IMG/VR virus record: IMGVR_UViG_3300011678_000001
Location: 96,001 to 160,000 of that record
DNA from: a virus
Lineage: Duplodnaviria; Caudoviricetes
Strand: one strand, 5' to 3'
Length of the DNA stretch: 64,000 nt
Below, in pieces: positions 4,362 to 62,520 of the stretch (its first letter is position 1; each line of letters opens with the position of its first letter). Below the pieces are notes generated by a model. It did no database searches. It had not been told where the DNA came from and saw only the letters and a list, made by a program, of their open reading frames with translations. The translations under genes were made by a program, and so were the position numbers.

Positions 4362-4387
4362 GGCATAAAGGAGGGCGCAGGCCCTCC
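4361..4387 (-). terminator. terminator with TTTATGCCG tail
   Basis: GGAGGGC/GCCCTCC hairpin plus conserved tail. Confidence 0.7.
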
Positions 4388-8243: not shown

Positions 8244-8277
8244 CGGCATAGCGGTGATGGACCGAAGTCCATCACCG
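8244..8277 (-). terminator. terminator (UUCG loop, TATGCCG tail)
   Basis: CGGTGATGGAC-TTCG-GTCCATCACCG, 11-bp stem. Confidence 0.8.
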
Positions 8278-18687: not shown

Positions 18688-18815
18688 CTAGGTGTTCCTT
18701 CTTAGTTGTGGTTGGCATTCCGTAGTTATAATGTATTGCCCCAGATTTTTTAATTACGGAACCAATAAAAAATAAAGAGGCGGCATAAAGGCCGGGTCCC
18801 CCCGGCCCCTATGGC

Positions 18816-21568: not shown

Positions 21569-22453
21569 TCAGAGGACCAGCTGCAGGACGGGTTTCCAAT
21601 AGCCACTTGATGTCAGCGCAATGTTGCTGATGCCAGACACAGCGTTGGGCGCGCCTCTAGTGGCGCGCGTGGCGGTGGTGGTCCCGATATCTGCGCAAAG
21701 GATAGTTGACTGACCCTTTTGCATGTTGTCGTGGCTGAGGTCGTCCCACTTCATCCGGCTGTCCGCCTGAGCCAGGACGGTCGGGTAGTGCATCCGGTCC
21801 CATTCAGACTGATCGGTCGGTCGGGTGGCGGCCAGTGCTTCGGTGGGGTTGTTAGTCCCGACAGGCAGGCGCACGACGAATTGATGTTCGTTCTTCTGCA
21901 CGGTCTTCATCTGGTTGACCGGACTGCCCACAGGCGACGGTGCGAATCCAGGACCGTCAACGCCGTAGACGAGGCCTTTCTGGTACAGCGTTTCCCAGCT
22001 CAGGTTATAGGCAACCGGACCGTCTGGCAGGAAGAGGATTTTGCCATCGATGGCGTATTTAAACCACTTGGTAGTCACCCCTATGCGTGTACCGCCACTG
22101 CCGGAAGCAGTCATCAGTTCAGCATCAGTGAACATGTCGGCCTGAGGCACCGAGCCGAAGTAGCCGTCTTTGAAGTTACCACGGATCGGCTGTTGAGGAC
22201 CTGGGCCTGTGTAAGGAAACGCACCCAAGATCTTCTCATTTGAAAGCGTCTTGTCAGTTCCTTTGAATGATTCGAACCGGTAATAATAGACCTTGTTCTG
22301 CTCGAGGGTCTCATCCACGAACTCCATGACGCCTGGCCCTACCGTACCAATAGGTGCGGGGAGTGAGGCGGGATTCATCGGAGCGGTACTGCGGTAGATC
22401 CGCGTGCCATCGGAGGCCACGTTGCGGTCTTTCCAAGTCAATTTAAGTGGCAT
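21569..22453 (-). CDS. virion structural protein, phiKZ gp131-like paralogue family
   Basis: FN3-like N-terminus; TGPGP...GYFG...WFK...GKILFLP...SWETLY.KGLVYG motifs shared with the two neighbours. Confidence 0.75.
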   Translation of the reverse strand: MPLKLTWKDRNVASDGTRIYRSTAPMNPASLPAPIGTVGPGVMEFVDETLEQNKVYYYRFESFKGTDKTLSNEKILGAFPYTGPGPQQPIRGNFKDGYFGSVPQADMFTDAELMTASGSGGTRIGVTTKWFKYAIDGKILFLPDGPVAYNLSWETLYQKGLVYGVDGPGFAPSPVGSPVNQMKTVQKNEHQFVVRLPVGTNNPTEALAATRPTDQSEWDRMHYPTVLAQADSRMKWDDLSHDNMQKGQSTILCADIGTTTATRATRGAPNAVSGISNIALTSSGYWKPVLQLVL

Positions 22454-22465
22454 GGTCTGGCTCCG

Positions 22466-23422
22466 TTAGATGTTGAGGTTGACAGGGTAGGACGGGATGT
22501 GTTCCAGCACTGGCCGCCAGCACTGGCCTGAGACTGTAGACAAAGCGACCTGCTGTCCGAAGATGAGCGCAGTCTTGTCCGAGTAACCCGGACTCCCACG
22601 TCCAACTGCAAGGCCTGGATTGTTGACCGCCAATTCCTGACACCATGCGGTTTGGAAGTTGTTAAAATCAGCACGGGTTTTGGCAGCCCAGTTAGAGCGT
22701 CTTTGGGTGGCAGGTACCCATTCACAGGTCGGGTAAATCAGATCATCCCACTCAGAACCCGTTGACTGGGTCTGGGTCGTGGTGCTGGTGATGGCCAGCA
22801 TTCCGCGATCAGGTCGGGGAGCAGCTGACGTCATTAGACGCACCAAGAAGGATTCCTTACCGATGGTCACCACACGCTTCTGGTTGACTTTGGTGCCCGC
22901 ATAGAGCGAAGAGCCGAAATCGTCCGTACCGTAAACCAGTCCGGCGTCGTATAGCTGTTGCCAGCTGACGCTGCCGCTGATGTGCTGCAGGGGAGTAAAT
23001 AGGGTTTTCCCATTGCGGGCAAACTTAAGCCACGGGGTTTCTGGGTTGGTGACTGACCCCGGTGTGAAGTTAAGCGCTGCGCGAAGGTTAGCCGGTGTGA
23101 TGAAATCACTGCCCAGCAACTCGCCGTAAAATCCGTTTTCCAGATCGCCATCAACCAGTTTCTGTGAACCAGGACCGGTGCGTGGGAGTGCCCAGATCTG
23201 CTGGTTCAACGACACGTTACGGCCTTTCGAGGTGACAGACTCGAAGACGTAGTAGTACAGGGCACCGGCCACGACGTTCGGATCGATCCATTCAAGTTCG
23301 CCTTGAGTCAGAGTGGCCACTGGTGTGCCGAGGTTGTTACGATCGATGGGCGCGGTGGCCCGATAGATCTTAGTGGTCGTAGCTACCACGTTGGGGTTAT
23401 TCCAAACAAGCTTCAATTGCAT
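22466..23422 (-). CDS. virion structural protein, phiKZ gp131-like paralogue family
   Basis: Same motif set (TGPG, GFYGE, WLKF, SWQQLY.AGLVYG, WRPVLE). Confidence 0.75.
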   Translation of the reverse strand: MQLKLVWNNPNVVATTTKIYRATAPIDRNNLGTPVATLTQGELEWIDPNVVAGALYYYVFESVTSKGRNVSLNQQIWALPRTGPGSQKLVDGDLENGFYGELLGSDFITPANLRAALNFTPGSVTNPETPWLKFARNGKTLFTPLQHISGSVSWQQLYDAGLVYGTDDFGSSLYAGTKVNQKRVVTIGKESFLVRLMTSAAPRPDRGMLAITSTTTQTQSTGSEWDDLIYPTCEWVPATQRRSNWAAKTRADFNNFQTAWCQELAVNNPGLAVGRGSPGYSDKTALIFGQQVALSTVSGQCWRPVLEHIPSYPVNLNI

Positions 23423-23433
23423 GGTATTGTACC

Positions 23434-24417
23434 TTAGACAATAGTGGTTGTGACGTTACCGATGGGTAACAAGGCGTCTTCAGTGGCGTAACTTGCCACT
23501 TGAATTCGAGCTACAGCTTCGTGTAACACGCCATCCATACCACCTACGCTTAATGGCTGGTCGAGGGTGTCGTAACCGACCACGTTGATTCGGAAGATCG
23601 ACTGACTATGGTCGTAAGAGACATCGCCCACATTCAGAAGGAGCGGAGACATCGAATCGAGTTGAATGCCGCCGGCGTTGAAGGCAAACAAGTCGTTTGG
23701 AATCAATTCCAAGACTGGACGCCAGCCGTAACTGCCGGTCGCAGTCGCACTGGAGGTGTTGGTGAGAATCCCTGCCAGGCTGCTGTGGGTGCTCGCAATA
23801 CGCCAAACGCGCATGCCGCCGGCGGTCTTGACCTCACTGGCTGGTTTTTCCTGCACCCAACTGTATTGACCATTGCCTGAAAAGCCCAGTTGGACAGCCG
23901 TTTGACGAGTCCAGTACTCGCCCGAGGGATCGTTATCCCACAGCTTGAACAGCAGGTCGTCGACTTCACCGCCAATGGCGGTAGCCGGGTTGGCGTTACC
24001 GCCCTTCATCAACCGAACGATGTAGGCGTTATTATTGATGACCAGAATCTTCTTCTGATCGACTGGACCGTTATTGCCAGTGAACGGACCTGAACCTTCG
24101 AGCCCATAGACCGCACCAGCTTCGTAAATCTTGTCCCAAGACATGTCGTAGCGGTACGTCATCTTAGGGATGAACAAGGTCTTCTTACCGTGCATGAACT
24201 TCAGCCAAGGGGCTGTCGTGTTTGCAGCAGTGCCCGTTGTTAACCCGACCAAAGATGCCAGTGCAGCACCGTCGATCAGGTCAGCAGTCGGAACCTCGCC
24301 AAAGTAACCCTTATCGATATTGCCTGCGATGAGGGCTTTAGCACCGGGTCCCGTATACCTGAACGGGTTGAAGCCCTTGCGTTGTCTCGCCGCAGCGACC
24401 ATCAGCGCATGGAGCAT
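23434..24417 (-). CDS. virion structural protein, phiKZ gp131-like paralogue family
   Basis: Same motif set (TGPG, GYFGEV, WLKF, SWDKIY.AGAVYG, WRPVLE); start at MLHAL after AAGG. Confidence 0.75.
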   Translation of the reverse strand: MLHALMVAAARQRKGFNPFRYTGPGAKALIAGNIDKGYFGEVPTADLIDGAALASLVGLTTGTAANTTAPWLKFMHGKKTLFIPKMTYRYDMSWDKIYEAGAVYGLEGSGPFTGNNGPVDQKKILVINNNAYIVRLMKGGNANPATAIGGEVDDLLFKLWDNDPSGEYWTRQTAVQLGFSGNGQYSWVQEKPASEVKTAGGMRVWRIASTHSSLAGILTNTSSATATGSYGWRPVLELIPNDLFAFNAGGIQLDSMSPLLLNVGDVSYDHSQSIFRINVVGYDTLDQPLSVGGMDGVLHEAVARIQVASYATEDALLPIGNVTTTIV

Positions 24418-24448
24418 GTTTGTGTACCTTCGTGAGTTCAAGCCAGCA

Positions 24449-24519
24449 TAGCAACGATTGCAGGTGCAATCCCCCATGGCACAAATCATCCATGAGATCA
24501 CTGCACCTGCAATCTGCTA
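24449..24519. other. long intergenic stem-loop
   Basis: GATTGCAGGTGCA (24456-24468) pairs perfectly with TGCACCTGCAATC (24502-24514), extended by TAGCA/TGCTA and an inner CATGG/CCATG. Confidence 0.7.
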
Positions 24520-25067: not shown

Positions 25068-25505
25068 TCAGCCCTTGAAGTGGCTTTCCCCACCGATGCG
25101 GACACCGGCATAGAAGATCGCCGCGCGCCAGCGAGCAATTCCTTCATCTCGCAGAGCACGGTACAGCACCTCGTCGGCTTCCTTACGCGTCAGGGCACGA
25201 GTCGTGCCATCGGGCAGGGTTACCGGGTTGCCGCTGTACAACCAATCGTGAATCGTTGCAGCCTTATCCCCATAGTCCGCCAACAGGGCGTAGAGGGGGA
25301 ACAGGAACAGGTTACGCAACGCATCCAAACTGGCGTAGTTGGTCTCAAATCCTTTCTTGACCGTGATGGGTCCGAAGACTTCATCGTTGTAGGTGAAATC
25401 ATTGAGCATCAAGTACAAACGACGTCTGAGTTCACGGGTGTCGAAATTGGAGAACTTCCCAATGCCCAATGTATCGGTGTATTGAGGTAGTGCCAGATCG
25501 TACAT
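25068..25505 (-). CDS. DUF1353-family protein
   Basis: V.KGFETNYAS, AATIHDWLY, RKEAD.V...AL, YAGVRIGG motifs. Confidence 0.8.
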   Translation of the reverse strand: MYDLALPQYTDTLGIGKFSNFDTRELRRRLYLMLNDFTYNDEVFGPITVKKGFETNYASLDALRNLFLFPLYALLADYGDKAATIHDWLYSGNPVTLPDGTTRALTRKEADEVLYRALRDEGIARWRAAIFYAGVRIGGESHFKG

Positions 25506-25558
25506 GATCAAATCCTCGAAGAAGGCGGGAAAATCCAGTCTCATAGGATTTGTCGATT

Positions 25559-25587
25559 CGGCATAGAAAGCGGGCAGAACGCCCGCT
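25559..25587 (-). terminator. terminator ending the desaturase cassette
   Basis: AGCGGGC/GCCCGCT stem followed by TTCTATGCCG. Confidence 0.75.
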
Positions 25588-25599
25588 GACTAGGGTGTT

Positions 25600-26523
25600 T
25601 CAGGCAAAAGCTTCGAGAATGTCCTCGATCACCGTTGCCTTGTTCGGGATGGCTTGATTGAGCGCAATACGCAACCGATGCCGTCCATTCATGGACACTG
25701 CTTGGACTCGCCCCATCTGATTCTTCTTAAGCATCTGGAAGATCGCAGGGGTTTCGTAGTTGGTCCGGCCTATGGGAGAGGACCCCACAAAACAGTTACC
25801 ATTGGTCTCACTTTGCCCATGGGCAATCATCAACCGCGTGAAGTTCTCATGACTGCAGTCTAATGAAAAGACATCGTCCTTCACCGAGCCTGAACCGTAC
25901 AGTGAGTAGTGTCCGTAACAGTGTTCAAAGCCCTCTAGGATCTTGCTGGTGATGATGTTCGGATTACCCAGTGCGTTGCATGCCGCTTGTGCTAGGAAGT
26001 CTTGTACGCGCATCCCAGCGGCCTTAGCGCGCCTTAAGTAATCGTCACTGATAAAGACCGTAGTCGTCTCAGCTTCACCTTCAATGCCCTCGAAGTTGTA
26101 CAGCCTCGGGTTGAATACCTGGTTGGGTATGATCTTGCCGATGGTGGTTGGAGATTCGTAATGCATGAGCATCCCGCCGGCTGCTACCCGAAAAAGTTCA
26201 TGGGTCAAACGACTGTAACTCCAGCCATCTAAGAACTCGTGAGTGAACGACAGCCAGTACCCTTCTTCACACTCGGCCACCTTAAAGCAGCTGGGATGAT
26301 CTAAGTGGTCGCGAGGATGGGTCGACAGTAACGTCAACCGATCCGCGATCTTGACCTGATCCCCATGCCAGTATGCACGCATCGCAGGGATGTGTTGAGC
26401 AATCTCATTGGCCGCCTCAATGAGGACATGGCCTGGGCAGTCGAAGTCCGGTACAAACAAGGCACCGTAAGTCATCTGCTTACCGTGGCCCGAGAAGGCC
26501 CGCTGCATGGGGTTCAGTCTCAT
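25600..26523 (-). CDS. stand-alone NRPS condensation-like / CoA-dependent acyltransferase
   Basis: N-terminal LNPMQ (C-domain motif C1, LSxxQ) and active-site THEFLDGWS (HHxxxDG); ATGA overlap with desaturase 2. Confidence 0.7.
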   Translation of the reverse strand: MRLNPMQRAFSGHGKQMTYGALFVPDFDCPGHVLIEAANEIAQHIPAMRAYWHGDQVKIADRLTLLSTHPRDHLDHPSCFKVAECEEGYWLSFTHEFLDGWSYSRLTHELFRVAAGGMLMHYESPTTIGKIIPNQVFNPRLYNFEGIEGEAETTTVFISDDYLRRAKAAGMRVQDFLAQAACNALGNPNIITSKILEGFEHCYGHYSLYGSGSVKDDVFSLDCSHENFTRLMIAHGQSETNGNCFVGSSPIGRTNYETPAIFQMLKKNQMGRVQAVSMNGRHRLRIALNQAIPNKATVIEDILEAFA

Positions 26524-27263
26524 TTCTTGATCATCCTTACAAACCAGGAGGTGGGGTCGACTTCCCACTTCTTAATGGCAAAGTTCCACCGGTTCGGAAA
26601 CTTGTGGTGGTTGTTGTGCAACCCTTCGCCGCCAAAGAGCCAACCCAAGAGCTTGGAGTTCCGCGAGCCTTCACCGGTGTCGTAGGACACATAGCCAAAC
26701 TCGTGAATCCATTTGATCGTCACATACTTGCGAGCAAACTGCATCGCCACCACTGGAATGGCCCAGAGGTAAATCAGGGCTTCAAGGGAGATCAAAGACA
26801 GTAAGGCAATCGCCACGAACGAATACGCAAAGTAGTAGCGGTAAGTGCGCATCATGATCGGATCAGAGACAAACCTGCGCTTCATGCCAGGGGTCATCTT
26901 GACGTTGATGTTCTTGAACGACACCATGCCGCTTTGGGCGTAGTAGTGATGCGGGTCTTCAGGCGTATCGGACTTCAGGTGGTGTTCCAGATGAATGATT
27001 GCGTAGAGGCCCGGATGACCGGAGAGACTCGTGCACGTCGCCCAGATCATAAACTCACGCCAGAACGGCGTGGTCTCAAAGGAATGGTGAGTGAAGTAGC
27101 GATGGTTCCCAGCTGAGAGTCCTGCAATCCAGTAGACCTGGAACATACAGAACGAGCCCAAGAGCCACCATCCGTTCGGCATAAAAAGCGCCCCGACAGA
27201 GATGACCATCGCGAAGATGGTCATCGCCGCAGCCTGTCGGTGATCAGACTGAAGGAACCGCAT
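26520..27263 (-). CDS. membrane fatty-acid desaturase 2 (delta-9/OLE1-like)
   Basis: His boxes HRYFTH, HLEHH, GEGLHNNHH; DT.EDPH; TM helices; WEVDP. Confidence 0.9.
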   Translation of the reverse strand: MRFLQSDHRQAAAMTIFAMVISVGALFMPNGWWLLGSFCMFQVYWIAGLSAGNHRYFTHHSFETTPFWREFMIWATCTSLSGHPGLYAIIHLEHHLKSDTPEDPHHYYAQSGMVSFKNINVKMTPGMKRRFVSDPIMMRTYRYYFAYSFVAIALLSLISLEALIYLWAIPVVAMQFARKYVTIKWIHEFGYVSYDTGEGSRNSKLLGWLFGGEGLHNNHHKFPNRWNFAIKKWEVDPTSWFVRMIKK

Positions 27264-28060
27264 TATGCAGCCTCAGGCTTCTTGGTGCGGATCAGGCGGA
27301 TGAATTGATAGCCAATATCAAACTCCCACCATTTCTCACCCAACTCAGCACGCTTGGGGCGTTTGTGATGGTTATTGTGCCAACCTTCACCACCGGCAAT
27401 CAGTGCTGCAAACCACCAGTTGTTACTGTAGTCGCCGTTGTCGTACGTCTGATAGCCCAACCCTTTCACGTGGCCTGTCCAGAGGACGAAGCGCAGCGTC
27501 AGTTGAGACATCCCCGCCGGGACCATCCACAGCCAGAATACCGCTTCAAGGGCATTCAAACCCACCGCTACACCGATCAACGCCGCCATCAGGATGTACG
27601 ACGCTACGTAGAGCCAGTAGTACTTGATGGTCAGTTGATGCAGGGTATCTCGGGCCACCATGGTCAATAGGAAGCGCTTGCTGACCTTCGTCTTGTGATC
27701 GAAGGGCGATTCACCGGTCAACTGTAACTTGACGTAAGGATCTTCTGGTGTATCGGCTTTACGGTGGTGCGTCATGTGCGTATCGGCCCAGATGCACGGC
27801 GGTCCCACCAGGGAGACCATTGCACAATAGGACATCACCCATTGCCAGAAGCGGTTGGTTTCGAACGCGTTGTGTGAATAGTACCGATGCACCCCCACAC
27901 TGATGCCCACCACGTTCAGGATCTGCCACAGCACCAAGGCTGCGATGATCAGAACGGGATTGAACTGCAAGAACGCGACGATCGGGGCGAGTGCCACCGA
28001 TGTCATGATGATCCGGTTACCCCAGACCATGTTGGTGTTGGTTGGTTTGAACATGTTCAT
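27263..28060 (-). CDS. membrane fatty-acid desaturase 1 (delta-9/OLE1-like)
   Basis: His boxes HRYYSH, HMTHH, GEGWHNNHH; DTPEDP; WWEFD; TAATG overlap with the next gene. Confidence 0.9.
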   Translation of the reverse strand: MNMFKPTNTNMVWGNRIIMTSVALAPIVAFLQFNPVLIIAALVLWQILNVVGISVGVHRYYSHNAFETNRFWQWVMSYCAMVSLVGPPCIWADTHMTHHRKADTPEDPYVKLQLTGESPFDHKTKVSKRFLLTMVARDTLHQLTIKYYWLYVASYILMAALIGVAVGLNALEAVFWLWMVPAGMSQLTLRFVLWTGHVKGLGYQTYDNGDYSNNWWFAALIAGGEGWHNNHHKRPKRAELGEKWWEFDIGYQFIRLIRTKKPEAA

Positions 28061-28068
28061 GCTACCCC

Positions 28069-28698
28069 TTACCCCTGTAGGATTTTCACGGTCGCCAAGG
28101 CGTCTGGTTCGACTTCCGGATACAGCGCCTTGATGTCTTCTTTGGTCACTTCATACATATACACCACAAAGGCGTTTTCAGTACTGGTGTTGGTCAAGGT
28201 GTAGGCTTGGGGCTTGGTCAACTTGAGGTGTTTGAATGCATTGTGCTCGCCAGTACCAATGGTGACGCTGCCTTCGACAATGAACAGGTTGCGCTCAAGG
28301 TCAGAGGCCTCGATGGTCACCGATTCGCCCGGTGCGAGTGGATAGTTCGCTGACCGATACAGCTTAGCACTGATGTCGTTGGCCATGATGCAGACAAACT
28401 TGCTGTCATCTTCACCACCCTGAACCCGGTACTCGCCCTTAACGCTCAAACGTGCATCCAAGGTAGCATCGCCCCGGTGACGTTCGAAATCAGGCATGGT
28501 TGCCGAGACGAACTGAATCGTGCCTTTGACAATGGCATTGGCCCGATAAGTGTTGACCCCAATGGTGGAGTCGTTGAAGGCTGTTTCACGAGGGACGTCC
28601 ACCGCAAGCACCACGTACTGGCCTTTGTTCAGACTCAGCTCATAGACCTTGAAGTTAGGCAGTACCCGTACGTTCCAGCCAGCTGGTAGGAATTCCAT
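28069..28698 (-). CDS. cupin/double-stranded beta-helix-like protein
   Basis: Two beta-rich halves with L.PGESV.I...LFIVEGSV.I pattern; inside the cassette. Confidence 0.45.
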   Translation of the reverse strand: MEFLPAGWNVRVLPNFKVYELSLNKGQYVVLAVDVPRETAFNDSTIGVNTYRANAIVKGTIQFVSATMPDFERHRGDATLDARLSVKGEYRVQGGEDDSKFVCIMANDISAKLYRSANYPLAPGESVTIEASDLERNLFIVEGSVTIGTGEHNAFKHLKLTKPQAYTLTNTSTENAFVVYMYEVTKEDIKALYPEVEPDALATVKILQG

Positions 28699-28700
28699 GG

Positions 28701-28928
28701 TCAGATCTCCTCAGAGTCAGGATGTCGATCAATGGCAGTGGTGGTGGGTGACGGAATATCCGCCGGAGGTAAACCGCTGTTCTCGATCAGGGCGTATGCC
28801 ATGCCCAGAACAAAAGCTTCCTTAACCGACAGACCTCCGAGGTCAAGTGGGGCGAAGTTGATTTTCGACTCCCCGAGGTCACCGCGCACCGTGGCGCTGG
28901 TGGATTGGATCGAAACTACTTTAAGCAT
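28701..28928 (-). CDS. small hypothetical protein
   Basis: 75 aa; AAGG RBS; tightly packed in the cassette. Confidence 0.65.
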   Translation of the reverse strand: MLKVVSIQSTSATVRGDLGESKINFAPLDLGGLSVKEAFVLGMAYALIENSGLPPADIPSPTTTAIDRHPDSEEI

Positions 28929-28948
28929 GACAATGTACCTTTAACAAA

Positions 28949-29533
28949 TTAGACCAAGACAACCGTGGTGGTCTGGTTGACAATGGCGTTATAGATGGCC
29001 TGCCACTGCGCGGAGCTTAAAGTCACACCTCCCACCCAACCGGCAGCAGTAGTGGGCTTGAAGCTACAGGTGTTGAGGTTAGCGCCTTTGAGGTCCTGAT
29101 CTCGGGTCATGTATCCAGCTATCGTGATACCGCCGATATTGATGCCTCGCACGCTTGCGGTCTGGGTGTTGCCTGGCGTGTTAAGCTGGAAGTAGATTGA
29201 GTAGCTATATGTTCCGTTATAGAGCGACCGGTTAATACGGATCTGCACGATGCCAGCACCCATGATAGAACCTGGGCTGACTGACCCGTAAGAACCTGGC
29301 ATGGAGCCAGTGTCTAAGAAATCGGCCGATGTCTGTGAGTTTACGGCGTATAAACTAAACGAACCCAGGCCTACCACAGCCGACTTACCACGAAGTTGAG
29401 TCAGTGAGATAGGACCGCTACCGACACCAGCCAAGCCTCGAACGTTAGAGGCACCTAGACTTATCGCACCACCGACGCCCAATTCGGCTCGCACTTGCGC
29501 CAATGAAATAGGACCACTTGAAGGTAAAGCCAT
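28949..29533 (-). CDS. fibre-tip adhesin / gp38-like receptor-recognition protein
   Basis: N-terminal MALPSSGPISLAQVRAELG...ISL...VRGLAG...GPISLTQLRGKS module, commonly found right after S74-containing fibres; Gly/Ser-rich variable C-terminus. Confidence 0.6.
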   Translation of the reverse strand: MALPSSGPISLAQVRAELGVGGAISLGASNVRGLAGVGSGPISLTQLRGKSAVVGLGSFSLYAVNSQTSADFLDTGSMPGSYGSVSPGSIMGAGIVQIRINRSLYNGTYSYSIYFQLNTPGNTQTASVRGINIGGITIAGYMTRDQDLKGANLNTCSFKPTTAAGWVGGVTLSSAQWQAIYNAIVNQTTTVVLV

Positions 29534-29597
29534 GATGGGCTCTCCTGTTCAATAAGGTGGAGTCATAGAGGAGAGGCTAGGCCTCTCCTCTATTTCG

Positions 29598-30047
29598 TTA
29601 GACCGCCGGTGTCTCGGTTCCTGTGTCGTCGACAGGTTCCTCAGCGTTAGCGGCTTCTTCTGCCGCGGCAGCTTCTGCATCACGCTCGGCTTGTTCCATC
29701 TCCAGCAGACGCAGGTAGTCTGCATCACGCTTGTCGGCAAAGTGCACGTAAGCAGAGGTCAACAGGGCTGCCAGCGTGGCCACGTTCGCTTGCTGACCCG
29801 AGGGCGTACCATCAGGGTTGAGTACCTCGAACGTTTCACCGATGTTAGCCGCATCAATGGCCATCATCAGTTCACCAGCAGGACGCCGGAAGACCGTGCC
29901 GTCCATTTCGACGACTTGCTCTTCAGCGAACATCACCCGAGGAATCTGACCGTAGTCGTTGTAGATGGTGATCGAGGACGCCCGCTTCCAGGTGTCACCT
30001 GTAGCAGTCTGGATGTTGTATTTGAAATCCATCGTTGGGATTGTCAT
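29598..30047 (-). CDS. tail fibre accessory/chaperone-like protein
   Basis: Directly follows the fibre gene; acidic tail. Confidence 0.5.
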   Translation of the reverse strand: MTIPTMDFKYNIQTATGDTWKRASSITIYNDYGQIPRVMFAEEQVVEMDGTVFRRPAGELMMAIDAANIGETFEVLNPDGTPSGQQANVATLAALLTSAYVHFADKRDADYLRLLEMEQAERDAEAAAAEEAANAEEPVDDTGTETPAV

Positions 30048-30071
30048 GAACGCATTGCCTTATGGATGGGG

Positions 30072-31556
30072 TTACTGACCTGCAGGTGACTGAGCCACTT
30101 GCGTCTGGAGTTCTTGGAACAGGGCTGTCAGGATGTCGACACGCTGACTCAGTGCATCGATCTGATTACCTTGATCGACGACAATGCCGTGCAGCTCCTT
30201 GATGCCTTCAGCCAGCAGGGCTGTGACGTTACCGTAGGAGATACCCATGTAGCCGTCTGGTTCGCCCTTGGAGACGACTTCCGGCAGCACCTTGTACATC
30301 TCTTGGGCAATGAAGCCTGCTTGAATCTGGCCACTGTCTTTACGACGGTAGATCACACCCCGCACACCATGAATGCGCTCAAGGGGATTGTCGATGACCC
30401 GGATATTATCCTTCAGTCGGATGTCCGAATACGCCGTGATGTTACCGGCGGCGTAAATGTCCAAGGCCACACCCAGACCACCGGAGATACGCACCGCGCC
30501 TGAAGTGGCCGACGTGGCGTTACTGGTGTTGCCGAACGTGGTGATCCCGGTAACCGTACCACCGCCAGTTGAGAACTTCGCATCCAGCGCAGCTTGCAGT
30601 CCCGATACGGTCGAGATGGCTTGTGTGCCGGTATGGTTAGCTCGGTTGATCAATACCGCATCAGAGGAGTTGACCGTTGCACCGGCTGCAACCCCATCCA
30701 GTTTGGACTTATCTGCTGCGGTCATGAGACCCGCCAGGGCTGTGGTCGCTGCCGCGATGGCCGCATTAGCCCCGGTGGAACTGGAGACTGTACCGGCAGT
30801 TGCAGAAGCCGACCATGACAGGTTTGTTGCGACGTTGACTTGTGCACCGGCTTGAATGCCGTCCAACTTGCTCTTGTCCGCTGAGGTCAGAAGACCTGCA
30901 GCGGCTGTAGTAGCTGCTGGAAGTGTGGCGTTAGTGCCTGTCGAACTGACCACTGTACCGGTGGTGGTGGCCGTGGTATAGCTGAGGTTGGTGGCCACGT
31001 TAACCTGAGCACCTGCCTCAATACCATCCAGCTTAGTTTTTTCTGAAGAACTGTTCCACCAGCTGGCGATGGCTTGACGTACCCGTTCTGCTGTCCACGC
31101 TCGGCGAGTGGTAGATGTACCCGCTTCCGCTTCCGCTTGTGTGATGGTGGAGGCGACCCATTCCCGACTGTTGGTCAGACGGACATCGGTGTTTTCCACC
31201 TTGGTAGCCAGCGAATCGCTTAAGCCTGTAATCTTACTGATCTCAAGGGCTGGGATATCCGCTGCAATCAACAGCTCGCCTTTGGTGACACGGCCTTTAC
31301 TGTCCACGGTGACTTTGGGGTAGATCCCCGGAGCCACTGCGGTGTTAGCCAGGGTCAAGGCAACCGATACAGCAGCATTACCAGGAACCGACTTGGTGCC
31401 AGTGGCATCGCCTGTGAACGACAGGGTAAACGGGTTGGTCAGCTTATCGGCGCTGACCGCGGCTGCCGTTTTGTCCAACTTCGTATCAATGGATGCAGAG
31501 ATCCCCGACATTAAGTTGGCAAACTTCAGCTTGAGTGCTTCAATTTGAGTTGACAT
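30072..31556 (-). CDS. tail fibre with C-terminal intramolecular chaperone (peptidase S74)
   Basis: gp53-like YPKVTVDSKGRVT, internal 55-aa tandem repeat (KLDG..AGA.VN), YSDIRLKDNI cleavage motif, GFIAQE, terminal coiled coil. Confidence 0.88.
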   Translation of the reverse strand: MSTQIEALKLKFANLMSGISASIDTKLDKTAAAVSADKLTNPFTLSFTGDATGTKSVPGNAAVSVALTLANTAVAPGIYPKVTVDSKGRVTKGELLIAADIPALEISKITGLSDSLATKVENTDVRLTNSREWVASTITQAEAEAGTSTTRRAWTAERVRQAIASWWNSSSEKTKLDGIEAGAQVNVATNLSYTTATTTGTVVSSTGTNATLPAATTAAAGLLTSADKSKLDGIQAGAQVNVATNLSWSASATAGTVSSSTGANAAIAAATTALAGLMTAADKSKLDGVAAGATVNSSDAVLINRANHTGTQAISTVSGLQAALDAKFSTGGGTVTGITTFGNTSNATSATSGAVRISGGLGVALDIYAAGNITAYSDIRLKDNIRVIDNPLERIHGVRGVIYRRKDSGQIQAGFIAQEMYKVLPEVVSKGEPDGYMGISYGNVTALLAEGIKELHGIVVDQGNQIDALSQRVDILTALFQELQTQVAQSPAGQ

Positions 31557-31594
31557 CTTGGTTCAACCTTGTAAAGAGGGAGAGCCCACGACCC

Positions 31595-45474: not shown

Positions 45475-45505
45475 CGGCATAAGGGGAGAGCTTCGGCTCT
45501 CCCCT
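45475..45505 (-). terminator. terminator with TATGCCG tail
   Basis: AGGGGAGAGC/GCTCTCCCCT 10-bp stem. Confidence 0.75.
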
Positions 45506-51125: not shown

Positions 51126-51193
51126 GGTGTAAATCCATTACAGGTTAATGACGAAGGGCATAGCGCGGTGGGACACCCCACCGCGACTACAGG

Positions 51194-53556: not shown

Positions 53557-53583
53557 CGGCATACAGGGAGGCCGAAGCCTCCC
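53557..53583 (-). terminator. terminator (UUCG loop, TATGCCG tail)
   Basis: GGGAGGC-TTCG-GCCTCCC plus tail. Confidence 0.75.
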
Positions 53584-62479: not shown

Positions 62480-62520
62480 CGGCATAAAAAACATCTACCC
62501 GGCGTGAACCGGGTAGATGT
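62480..62520 (-). terminator. terminator with TTTTTATGCCG tail
   Basis: ACATCTACCCGG/CCGGGTAGATGT 12-bp stem. Confidence 0.85.

Follow-up and report, generated by a model that had tools for sequence, protein, structure and literature searches.

Cyanophages carry the fatty acid desaturases vFAD-I/II, which were shown to form Delta9 C16:1 and were read as auxiliary metabolic genes (AMGs) of membrane fluidity (Roitman et al., ISME J 2018; PMC5776448). The polyyne "desaturase triad" of the cay/pgn pathways comprises cooperating desaturases acting on a thioester-bound chain, and the defining genes of such a cassette are those for fatty acyl-AMP ligase, for a dedicated acyl carrier protein (ACP) and for a thioesterase beside the desaturases (Kim, Ishida and Hertweck, 2022; PMC9828172). 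Here we describe a six-gene cassette on the minus strand of a 64,000-nucleotide (nt) stretch of phage DNA (the window), bases 96001-160000 of the 269,790-bp virus record IMGVR_UViG_3300011678_000001 of IMG/VR, which has a completeness rating of complete. With a probability of about 0.55, the cassette is a self-contained operon that encodes a pathway for tailoring acyl chains, specific to phages, and is passed on as a single block together with a tail fibre and a tip-adhesin-like protein. As anatomy this pathway reading is well supported; its chemistry and its target we infer. Full-text literature searches found no paper on desaturases in jumbo phages or on a phage condensation-domain enzyme, in agreement with an earlier interpretation of the same letters (the sequence-only reading), which knew of no described system with this layout. 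The cassette looks like an undescribed virus-encoded lipid-tailoring pathway.

Organization of the Cassette

The six open reading frames (ORFs) are all co-directional on the minus strand and lie where the sequence-only reading had placed them. In the order of transcription they encode A194 (28949-29533; 194 amino acids, aa), B75 (28701-28928; 75 aa), C209 (28069-28698; 209 aa), two desaturases of the PF00487 family, desA (27263-28060; 265 aa) and desB (26520-27263; 247 aa), and a protein with a predicted condensation-domain fold, designated C-like (25600-26523; 307 aa). The overlaps cited for translational coupling of the last three genes are present: the stop of desA and the start of desB overlap by 1 nt (TAATG at 27263), and the stop of desB and the start of the C-like gene by 4 nt (ATGA at 26523-26520), both read directly from the DNA. 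The start codon of the C-like gene was set at ATG 26523 rather than GTG 26568, because its homologues begin with MRLN or MKLN. The remaining intergenic gaps within the cassette are 20, 2 and 8 nt.

Both ends of the unit are marked by hairpins, which had been seen from the letters and were located here at 29570-29594 and 25569-25587. The upstream hairpin, the 5' boundary, is formed on the minus strand by the stem AGAGGAGAGGC / GCCTCTCCTCT with the loop CTA and runs into CTATGAC; its stem is 11-13 bp (-23.2 kcal/mol, z -6.6). Hairpins with different stem sequences occupy the same upstream position in eight related contigs (numbered with the prefix L: L001, L005, L010, L015, L016, L018, L019 and L021), so it is the structure that is conserved and not the sequence. 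The downstream hairpin, the 3' boundary, consists of AGCGGGC-GTTCT-GCCCGCT followed by TTCTATGCC, also on the minus strand (-16.3 kcal/mol, z -3.4; whole element 25560-25587).

A recurrent punctuation class, "hairpin + TATGCC", includes the downstream hairpin; the minus strand of the window has about ten of its sites, none of them within the cassette, and counterpart hairpin+TATG elements are present in L005, L015 and L016. Each element is a GC-rich hairpin with (T)TATGCC a few bases after it; on the minus strand such sites were seen at 346-365, 4370-4387, 8252-8277, 18790-18807, 25569-25587, 45482-45505, 51164-51185, 53566-53583 and 62491-62520. The element probably combines a terminator with a late-type promoter core of the phage's own. 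TATG is the core of phiKZ late promoters and was used only as a hint of late expression; judged by its position and strand, the cassette is probably expressed late. A scan for sigma-70 promoters and terminators was set aside as irrelevant to a phage with its own RNA polymerases. The motif "CCCTACATT" showed no enrichment and no occurrence near the cassette.

Two Desaturases

Both desaturases exceed the cut-off (29.7 bits) of the Pfam FA_desaturase model, desA with 76.2 bits (E 4.6e-21) and desB with 54.8 bits (E 1.5e-14), and a six-frame search identified exactly these two FA_desaturase genes in the genome. Nine di-iron His residues (H58, H63, H95, H98, H99, H197, H228, H231, and H232) are invariant in 12 sequences covering all three paralogue types found in the cassette and its relatives; they comprise the three boxes HxxxxH, HxxHH and HxxHH and an extra di-iron ligand. 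DesA is similar to SCD1, the acyl-CoA Delta9 desaturase of solved structure (4ymk; E 4.8e-9), over a region spanning boxes 1-2 and box 3, and its hydrophobic segments precede box 1 (residues 17-54) and separate box 2 from box 3 (residues 150-168). Within the cassette, hydrophobic segments of transmembrane grade are confined to desA and desB, while C-like, A194, and C209 are soluble. The two proteins share 33% identity. Taken together, desA and desB are predicted integral-membrane di-iron desaturases of the SCD/Delta9 type, and the earlier identification of two non-identical delta-9-type enzymes with intact His boxes is borne out. Neither reached the NCBIfam DesA equivalog NF049918 (70 and 56 bits vs. 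a cut-off of 400), and by these scores they are relatives of the bacterial DesA group and not members of it.

In a maximum-likelihood tree of 35 sequences, the desaturases grouped by gene position into clades with full support, one for position 1 (100/99), one for position 2 (100/100) and one for the position 3 of relatives, with positions 1 and 2 as sisters (99/97). It follows that the paralogues arose long ago and have been maintained separately since, a pattern that speaks for distinct functions and not for gene dosage. Nothing cellular came close to desA: outside the cassette its best match was at most 32% identical.

A second kind of multi-desaturase cluster is located on a metagenome contig of 31% GC (L022:3066-9786). 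It contains three short SCD-type desaturases (250-257 aa, 28-32% mutual identity) with genes for unknown proteins between them and Asn_synthase, TctC, and UbiB genes on the flanks, and has no C-like gene. Desaturase matches in "Acinetobacter phage MD-2021a" were discarded, as they are situated among bacterial chromosomal genes: that sequence (L013; CAKLQH020000002.1, 49255-61869) carries trpBC, btuB, baeSR, and ugpQ along with a 390-aa desaturase, a content that looks like a bacterial chromosome filed as phage, so this desaturase is not a phage gene.

Condensation-Fold Protein

At E <= 1 the C-like protein had no match in Pfam, PHROG or NCBIfam, and the Pfam Condensation model (PF00668) was no exception. 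When its profile was compared with the PDB, however, the top four entries were condensation domains of nonribosomal peptide synthetases (NRPS), aligned at the HHxxxDG motif (best E 0.007, bacitracin synthase 3). The 12-sequence alignment of the family shows invariant residues at H95, D99, and G100 and a nearly invariant W101, with the consensus [STN]H[ED]xxDGW. The first His of HHxxxDG is thus S, T or N in this family, while the second, catalytic His95 is retained. The HEFLDGWS motif cited by the sequence-only reading is present in the protein and invariant in the family.

An AlphaFold2 model built from these 12 sequences had a predicted local distance difference test score (pLDDT) of 93.7 and a predicted template modelling score (pTM) of 0.90; a model from five sequences was unusable (pLDDT 42). 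Foldseek searches with this model returned NRPS condensation (C), epimerization (E) and cyclization (Cy) domains as all top matches (E 8e-14, probability 1.00). The best structural alignment by VIA-align was to the Cy domain of pyochelin synthetase (Z 22.8, root-mean-square deviation 3.2, 304/307 residues), followed by AzeD (22.7), the CDA starter C domain (21.2), TRI3 (19.8), SgcC5 (19.1) and PapA5 (18.7), each over about 300/307 residues. Overall, over 40 entries of the C, Cy, E, PapA, BAHD, and TRI groups aligned with Z 22.8-15 across residues 1-307. As modelled, C-like is a complete but trimmed two-lobed condensation-fold enzyme that stands alone; the list of structural neighbours gives no resolution of its subtype. 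The sequence-only reading had called for searches with the FA_desaturase and Condensation families: the desaturase assignment was recovered by profile and the condensation/CoA-acyltransferase fold of the 25600-26523 protein by predicted structure, whereas the Condensation profile itself did not match.

This protein family is rare. A word-indexed search of 5.8 billion proteins returned four relatives and an exhaustive hidden Markov model search of 1.84 billion proteins nine representative clusters; the family has about a dozen known members, all on phage contigs. Among the genomes of 185,579 prokaryote species, a scan limited to chosen patterns of the profile gave no relatives, and neither did such a scan of metagenome contigs. 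Among GenBank phages the cassette had no megablast or blastn match and C-like no tblastn match.

Conservation Across Relatives

Nineteen contigs with the C-like gene were read for synteny, 17 of which include upstream sequence. The order desA-desB-C-like, with the same two desaturase orthologues, was found in all 17; in the remaining two of the 19, a desaturase follows the C-like gene. A third desaturase (desC) lies after the C-like gene in nine contigs. C209 is encoded directly 5' of desA wherever the region is visible, except in the most distant contig, L007, where its position is taken by a 185-aa protein that BLAST does not match to C209. In 12 contigs the genes just upstream encode first a Peptidase_S74 fibre and then an A194 homologue; one of the 12 is L007, with a C-like protein that has only 24-26% identity to that of the window. 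A194 is the first gene of every complete cassette. Co-inheritance, which the sequence-only reading had proposed to check by a synteny survey, is thus seen across about 19 contigs and down to 24-26% identity.

The components of the block diverge at different rates. Compared with the 254-kb relatives, identity is 95-96% for desB, 88-89% for desA, 81% for C-like, 66-74% for C209, 56% for the fibre and 43-70% for A194. Purifying selection is strong: the ratio of nonsynonymous to synonymous substitution rates (dN/dS) is 0.03-0.08 for the enzymes (desA 0.055, desB 0.03, and C-like 0.07-0.08) and 0.11-0.13 for C209, values that are rough because dS is near saturation.

A194, B75, and C209

In A194, the N-terminal part of about 60 aa (MALPSSGPISL..., with repeated SGPISL) and the last 20 or so residues are conserved, while residues 61-174 are hypervariable; Ser6, Ser39, and Ser86 are invariant. 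Between the cassette and L016, A194 is 43% identical, while the enzymes there are 81-95% identical. Conserved termini around a variable middle indicate the architecture of a fibre-attached binder. The protein matches phrog_26817 (E 2e-11). In 24 phage records its N-terminal module recurs, without the remainder, in small proteins encoded beside tail-fibre genes; one example is Vibrio phage PhiImVa-1, where a protein with this module is encoded directly after the gene for the long-fibre distal subunit. No match to the Pfam families GP38 or Gp38_N was found with six family members (E <= 5), and an Atlas search gave only a lead, Gp38_N in 16% of one cluster. Thus, of the earlier description of A194 as "gp38-like", the gene position and the shared fibre-associated N-terminal module stand, but profile membership does not.

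B75 is an accessory, a small acidic protein with a conserved core EAFxxGMAYAxxxNxGLP. Its homologues occur in L001, L005, L006, L010, L019, L021, and L027, and none is present in L007. All of them keep a C-terminal (S/T)E(E/D)I tail, which may be a docking peptide. A role as carrier protein was considered on account of the segment LDLGGLSV, which resembles a peptidyl carrier protein core, and was rejected since Ser34 is not conserved in the homologues and PF00550 has no match in the genome.

The C209 family is also rare (8 clusters). Its cupin matches are all sub-threshold: Pirin_C (E 0.044, 14.6 bits vs. a cut-off of 27), KduI (0.076), the bicupin ureidoglycine aminohydrolase (E 0.73) and Atlas cupin clusters (0.86). 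In the family alignment, R75-G76-D77 (Arg-Gly-Asp) is nearly invariant and there is no invariant His. If C209 is a cupin, the absence of a conserved His implies a metal-free one, and possibly it is such a protein. The label "cupin-like" given to it earlier is therefore backed by these weak matches, but by neither an above-cut-off profile nor an invariant His. Predicted complexes of C-like with C209 and with A194 scored 0.00, which counts neither for nor against an association.

Partners Missing from the Genome

Across the whole 270-kb genome there is no match to the PP-binding (PF00550) or AMP-binding families, i.e., no ACP and no acyl ligase, which extends to the entire phage what the sequence-only reading had stated for the stretch before it. 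No 2Fe-2S ferredoxin or rubredoxin family is encoded either. Since no carrier, ligase or electron-donor gene is present, the acyl donor and the reductant must come from the host.

Genomic Setting of the Block

The phage is related to phiKZ, as indicated by a conserved 552-aa protein with homologues in 173 phiKZ-type jumbo-phage records, of which Pseudomonas phage pPa_SNUABM_DT01 (DT01) is the best match (71% identity). DT01 has virion and non-virion RNA polymerases of phiKZ-like type (PMC8541153). A tubulin-family (PhuZ-like) gene is located outside the window (G000:C1:227085-227513; E 2.6e-11), consistent with a nucleus-forming phiKZ-type lifestyle. The stretch is present in three DNA sequencing runs of a single aquatic-metagenome study, with no RNA run listed.

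Upstream of the cassette lies the tail-fibre gene (30072-31556, minus strand; 494 aa), with a C-terminal Peptidase_S74 intramolecular-chaperone domain (PF13884, E 3.2e-14, residues 377-428) and matches to many PHROG tail-fibre families. A gene for a 149-aa protein without a family match (29598-30047, minus strand) separates it from the cassette. This protein is 66-77% identical in L015/L016 and absent from L001, L018, L019, and L021; it lies outside the cassette core and is restricted to the closest relatives. On the other side, a DUF1353, or tail-assembly-chaperone-like, gene (25068-25544, minus strand) matches PF07087 (E 3.2e-15) and phrog_1158 (E 1.9e-27), and it comes after the C-like gene also in L005, L011, and L012.

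A comparison of window positions 25545-31594 with positions 223685-226836 of DT01 (L014), the closest cultured phage, showed that the whole block of about 6 kb (S74 fibre, 149-aa gene and six-gene cassette) is missing there. In the gene order of DT01, the DUF1353 gene lies directly 3' of the large fibre gene, so DUF1353 marks the far end of the inserted block. With the fibre and DUF1353 genes abutting in DT01, the block has the behaviour of an insertable fibre module.

Located 3' of the fibre region are three paralogous genes in tandem for virion proteins (21569-24501; 294, 318, and 355 aa; phrog_1062/phrog_3589). Extra copies of these paralogues flank the cassette in L015 and L016.

Proposed Pathway and Alternatives

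DesA and desB are SCD-type di-iron enzymes that sit in the inner membrane of the host, and they are not redundant. In the proposed pathway they would draw electrons from host donors and, with O2, place double bonds in two different positions along an acyl chain derived from host acyl-ACP, acyl-CoA or phospholipid. Relatives would add a third desaturase to the pathway. His95 of C-like could then serve as general base for moving the acyl thioester onto a hydroxyl or amine of the acceptor, a transfer that would replace the thioesterase or carrier steps of cellular pathways, and C209 may be an obligate non-catalytic accessory, for instance a substrate- or acceptor-binding protein. The persistent linkage to fibre and adhesin genes suggests a role tied to adsorption, and on account of this linkage we think it more likely that the chain is accepted in the host envelope or at the fibre tip than that the pathway adjusts bulk membrane fluidity. 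The constancy of the enzymes while the adhesin core turns over speaks against tuning to a particular receptor and fits a constant modification site or a specificity-independent function. By its sequence, a cassette acting on the envelope, the adhesin, the bulk membrane or a metabolite would look the same. The lipid compartment of phiKZ-like phages, another target named by the sequence-only reading, is favoured by no finding of the analysis.

Several points weigh against the pathway. Transfer of a hypervariable island as a block, and not a shared function, could account for the linkage to the fibre; the enzymes, which keep 81-95% identity where the adhesin has 43%, show no tuning to the specificity of the adhesin. 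Regiospecificity, donor, acceptor and acyl-transfer activity are all read from family and fold. The fold also serves epimerases, cyclases, and dehydratases, with AzeD and Cy domains among the top matches, and transfer is therefore not guaranteed; further points are the replacement of the first His of HHxxxDG by S/T/N and the unmatched Pfam Condensation model. All substrates would have to be host-supplied, as genes for a carrier protein, a ligase or an electron donor are absent from the phage, and the late timing is read only from position and strand.

If, in an alternative reading, the block altered the receptor or envelope, a modified lipid A, glycolipid or outer-membrane lipid would block superinfection or the adsorption of progeny to debris, a reading that we regard as possible, though doubtful. 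Receptor-masking genes adjoin receptor-binding-protein genes elsewhere, as llp does the pb5 gene in T5 and cor genes do fibre genes, and the block is strictly linked to a fibre and an adhesin-like gene across lineages. Structural neighbours that acylate sugars or lipid alcohols, namely PapA5 (Z 18.7), PapA2 (15.6), a mannosylerythritol-lipid acyltransferase (17.6) and TRI3 (19.8), would suit such a substrate. Masking should, however, follow receptor specificity, and the 81-95% conserved enzymes stay while the variable domain of the adhesin is replaced; expression looks late, in a structural region, which would leave little time for envelope turnover, and any acceptor is putative. In another reading the genes are membrane-fluidity AMGs: the desaturases would raise the unsaturation of host phospholipids, C-like would re-esterify or remodel chains, and the position beside the fibre would be incidental. 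Among phage AMGs, single desaturases of the Delta9 DesC-like kind are established (PMC5776448), and the enzymes described here are SCD/Delta9-type by motif and similarity and do not co-vary with the adhesin. We nevertheless hold this reading to be unlikely: vFADs are single and host-like, whereas two to three deeply diverged, phage-only paralogues are kept here as separate orthologous groups, and desA matched nothing cellular closely; with a C-fold enzyme and C209 always alongside, this is more machinery than a change of fluidity requires, and the linkage to fibre and adhesin holds down to 24-26% identity.

Attachment of the tailored chain to the phage itself, with C-like covalently acylating A194 or the fibre to give a lipid-bearing adhesin, would explain constant enzymes beside a varying adhesin through a constant modification site on a variable binder. 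A194 heads every complete cassette, and its three invariant serines and conserved termini surround the variable core. To our knowledge, however, no condensation-fold enzyme acylates a folded protein, and many phages without the enzymes also have the conserved N-terminal module found in A194, so that at least this part needs no acylation; we consider self-lipidation quite unlikely. Less probable still is a diffusible metabolite, a polyunsaturated or alkyne chain of polyyne or jamaicamide type that C-like would offload as an ester or amide with toxin or signal function. Polyyne biosynthesis has at its core a triad of membrane desaturases that cooperate on a chain bound as a thioester (PMC9828172), nine relatives have three desaturases, and stand-alone C domains do offload to free acceptors (enacyloxin, 6cgo, Z 16.8; VibH, 16.3; SgcC5, 19.1), but fatty acyl-AMP ligase, dedicated ACP, thioesterase, and rubredoxin are all absent from the genome, and the benefit for a lytic phage is not evident. 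The acyl-chain tailoring pathway in its boldest form, in which a dedicated set of desaturases makes a non-standard chain (di- or poly-unsaturated, possibly an alkyne) for the phage and the miniature condensation enzyme attaches it covalently and carrier-independently to the phage's own fibre-tip adhesin or to a receptor-bearing envelope lipid, also seems rather improbable to us; if true, viruses would for the first time be seen to encode a lipidation system with a link to host recognition.

Should the cassette prove to be a working pathway, phages would run their own lipid chemistry in connection with adsorption. Phage desaturases have to date been known solely as single, host-like "fluidity" genes, while this cassette keeps two to three phage-only paralogues; these short SCD-type desaturases (about 250 aa) might have a new regiospecificity. 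C-like is the smallest complete condensation-fold enzyme found in the analysis, and for enzymology it would represent a 307-aa minimal C domain functioning without a cognate carrier protein. All parts of the cassette are small, intact and amenable to expression.

Comparison with Known Systems

The putative fibre-tip component has its closest counterpart in the gp38 adhesins of T-even phages. Like them, A194 is small, is encoded directly after a long-fibre gene and combines a conserved attachment part with a hypervariable part; unlike them, it matches neither GP38 nor Gp38_N, so the relationship is an analogy of position and not membership.

C-like shares the two-lobed fold of PapA5 (1q9j), PapA2 (6aef), SgcC5 (4znm), VibH (1l5a), Bamb_5915 (6cgo) and the CDA starter domain (4jn3), with Z 15.6-21.2. 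As in the stand-alone C-fold acyltransferases, the catalytic His-x3-Asp-Gly lies at the lobe junction, and the protein is free-standing, with no adenylation domain. It differs from them in its length (307 aa vs. about 400-450), the loss of the first His of HHxxxDG, the lack of a Pfam Condensation match and a genome without a partner carrier protein.

With the cyanophage vFADs, the desaturases of the cassette have in common that they are phage-borne membrane enzymes of the Delta9/DesC-SCD type, with three His boxes and a need for host electron donors. In contrast to the single, host-derived vFADs, they are two to three diverged, phage-only paralogues (247-265 aa in the window), which share an operon with a C-fold enzyme and C209 and are attached to a fibre/adhesin block. 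Several different membrane desaturases encoded side by side are also found in the polyyne pathways, where the set acts on one chain with dedicated release; the ligase, ACP, and thioesterase of those pathways are absent here, and release would be performed by the C-fold enzyme. Where several desaturases work on one chain, the polyyne desaturase triad is the nearest mechanistic precedent; among phages, the nearest is the single cyanophage vFAD.

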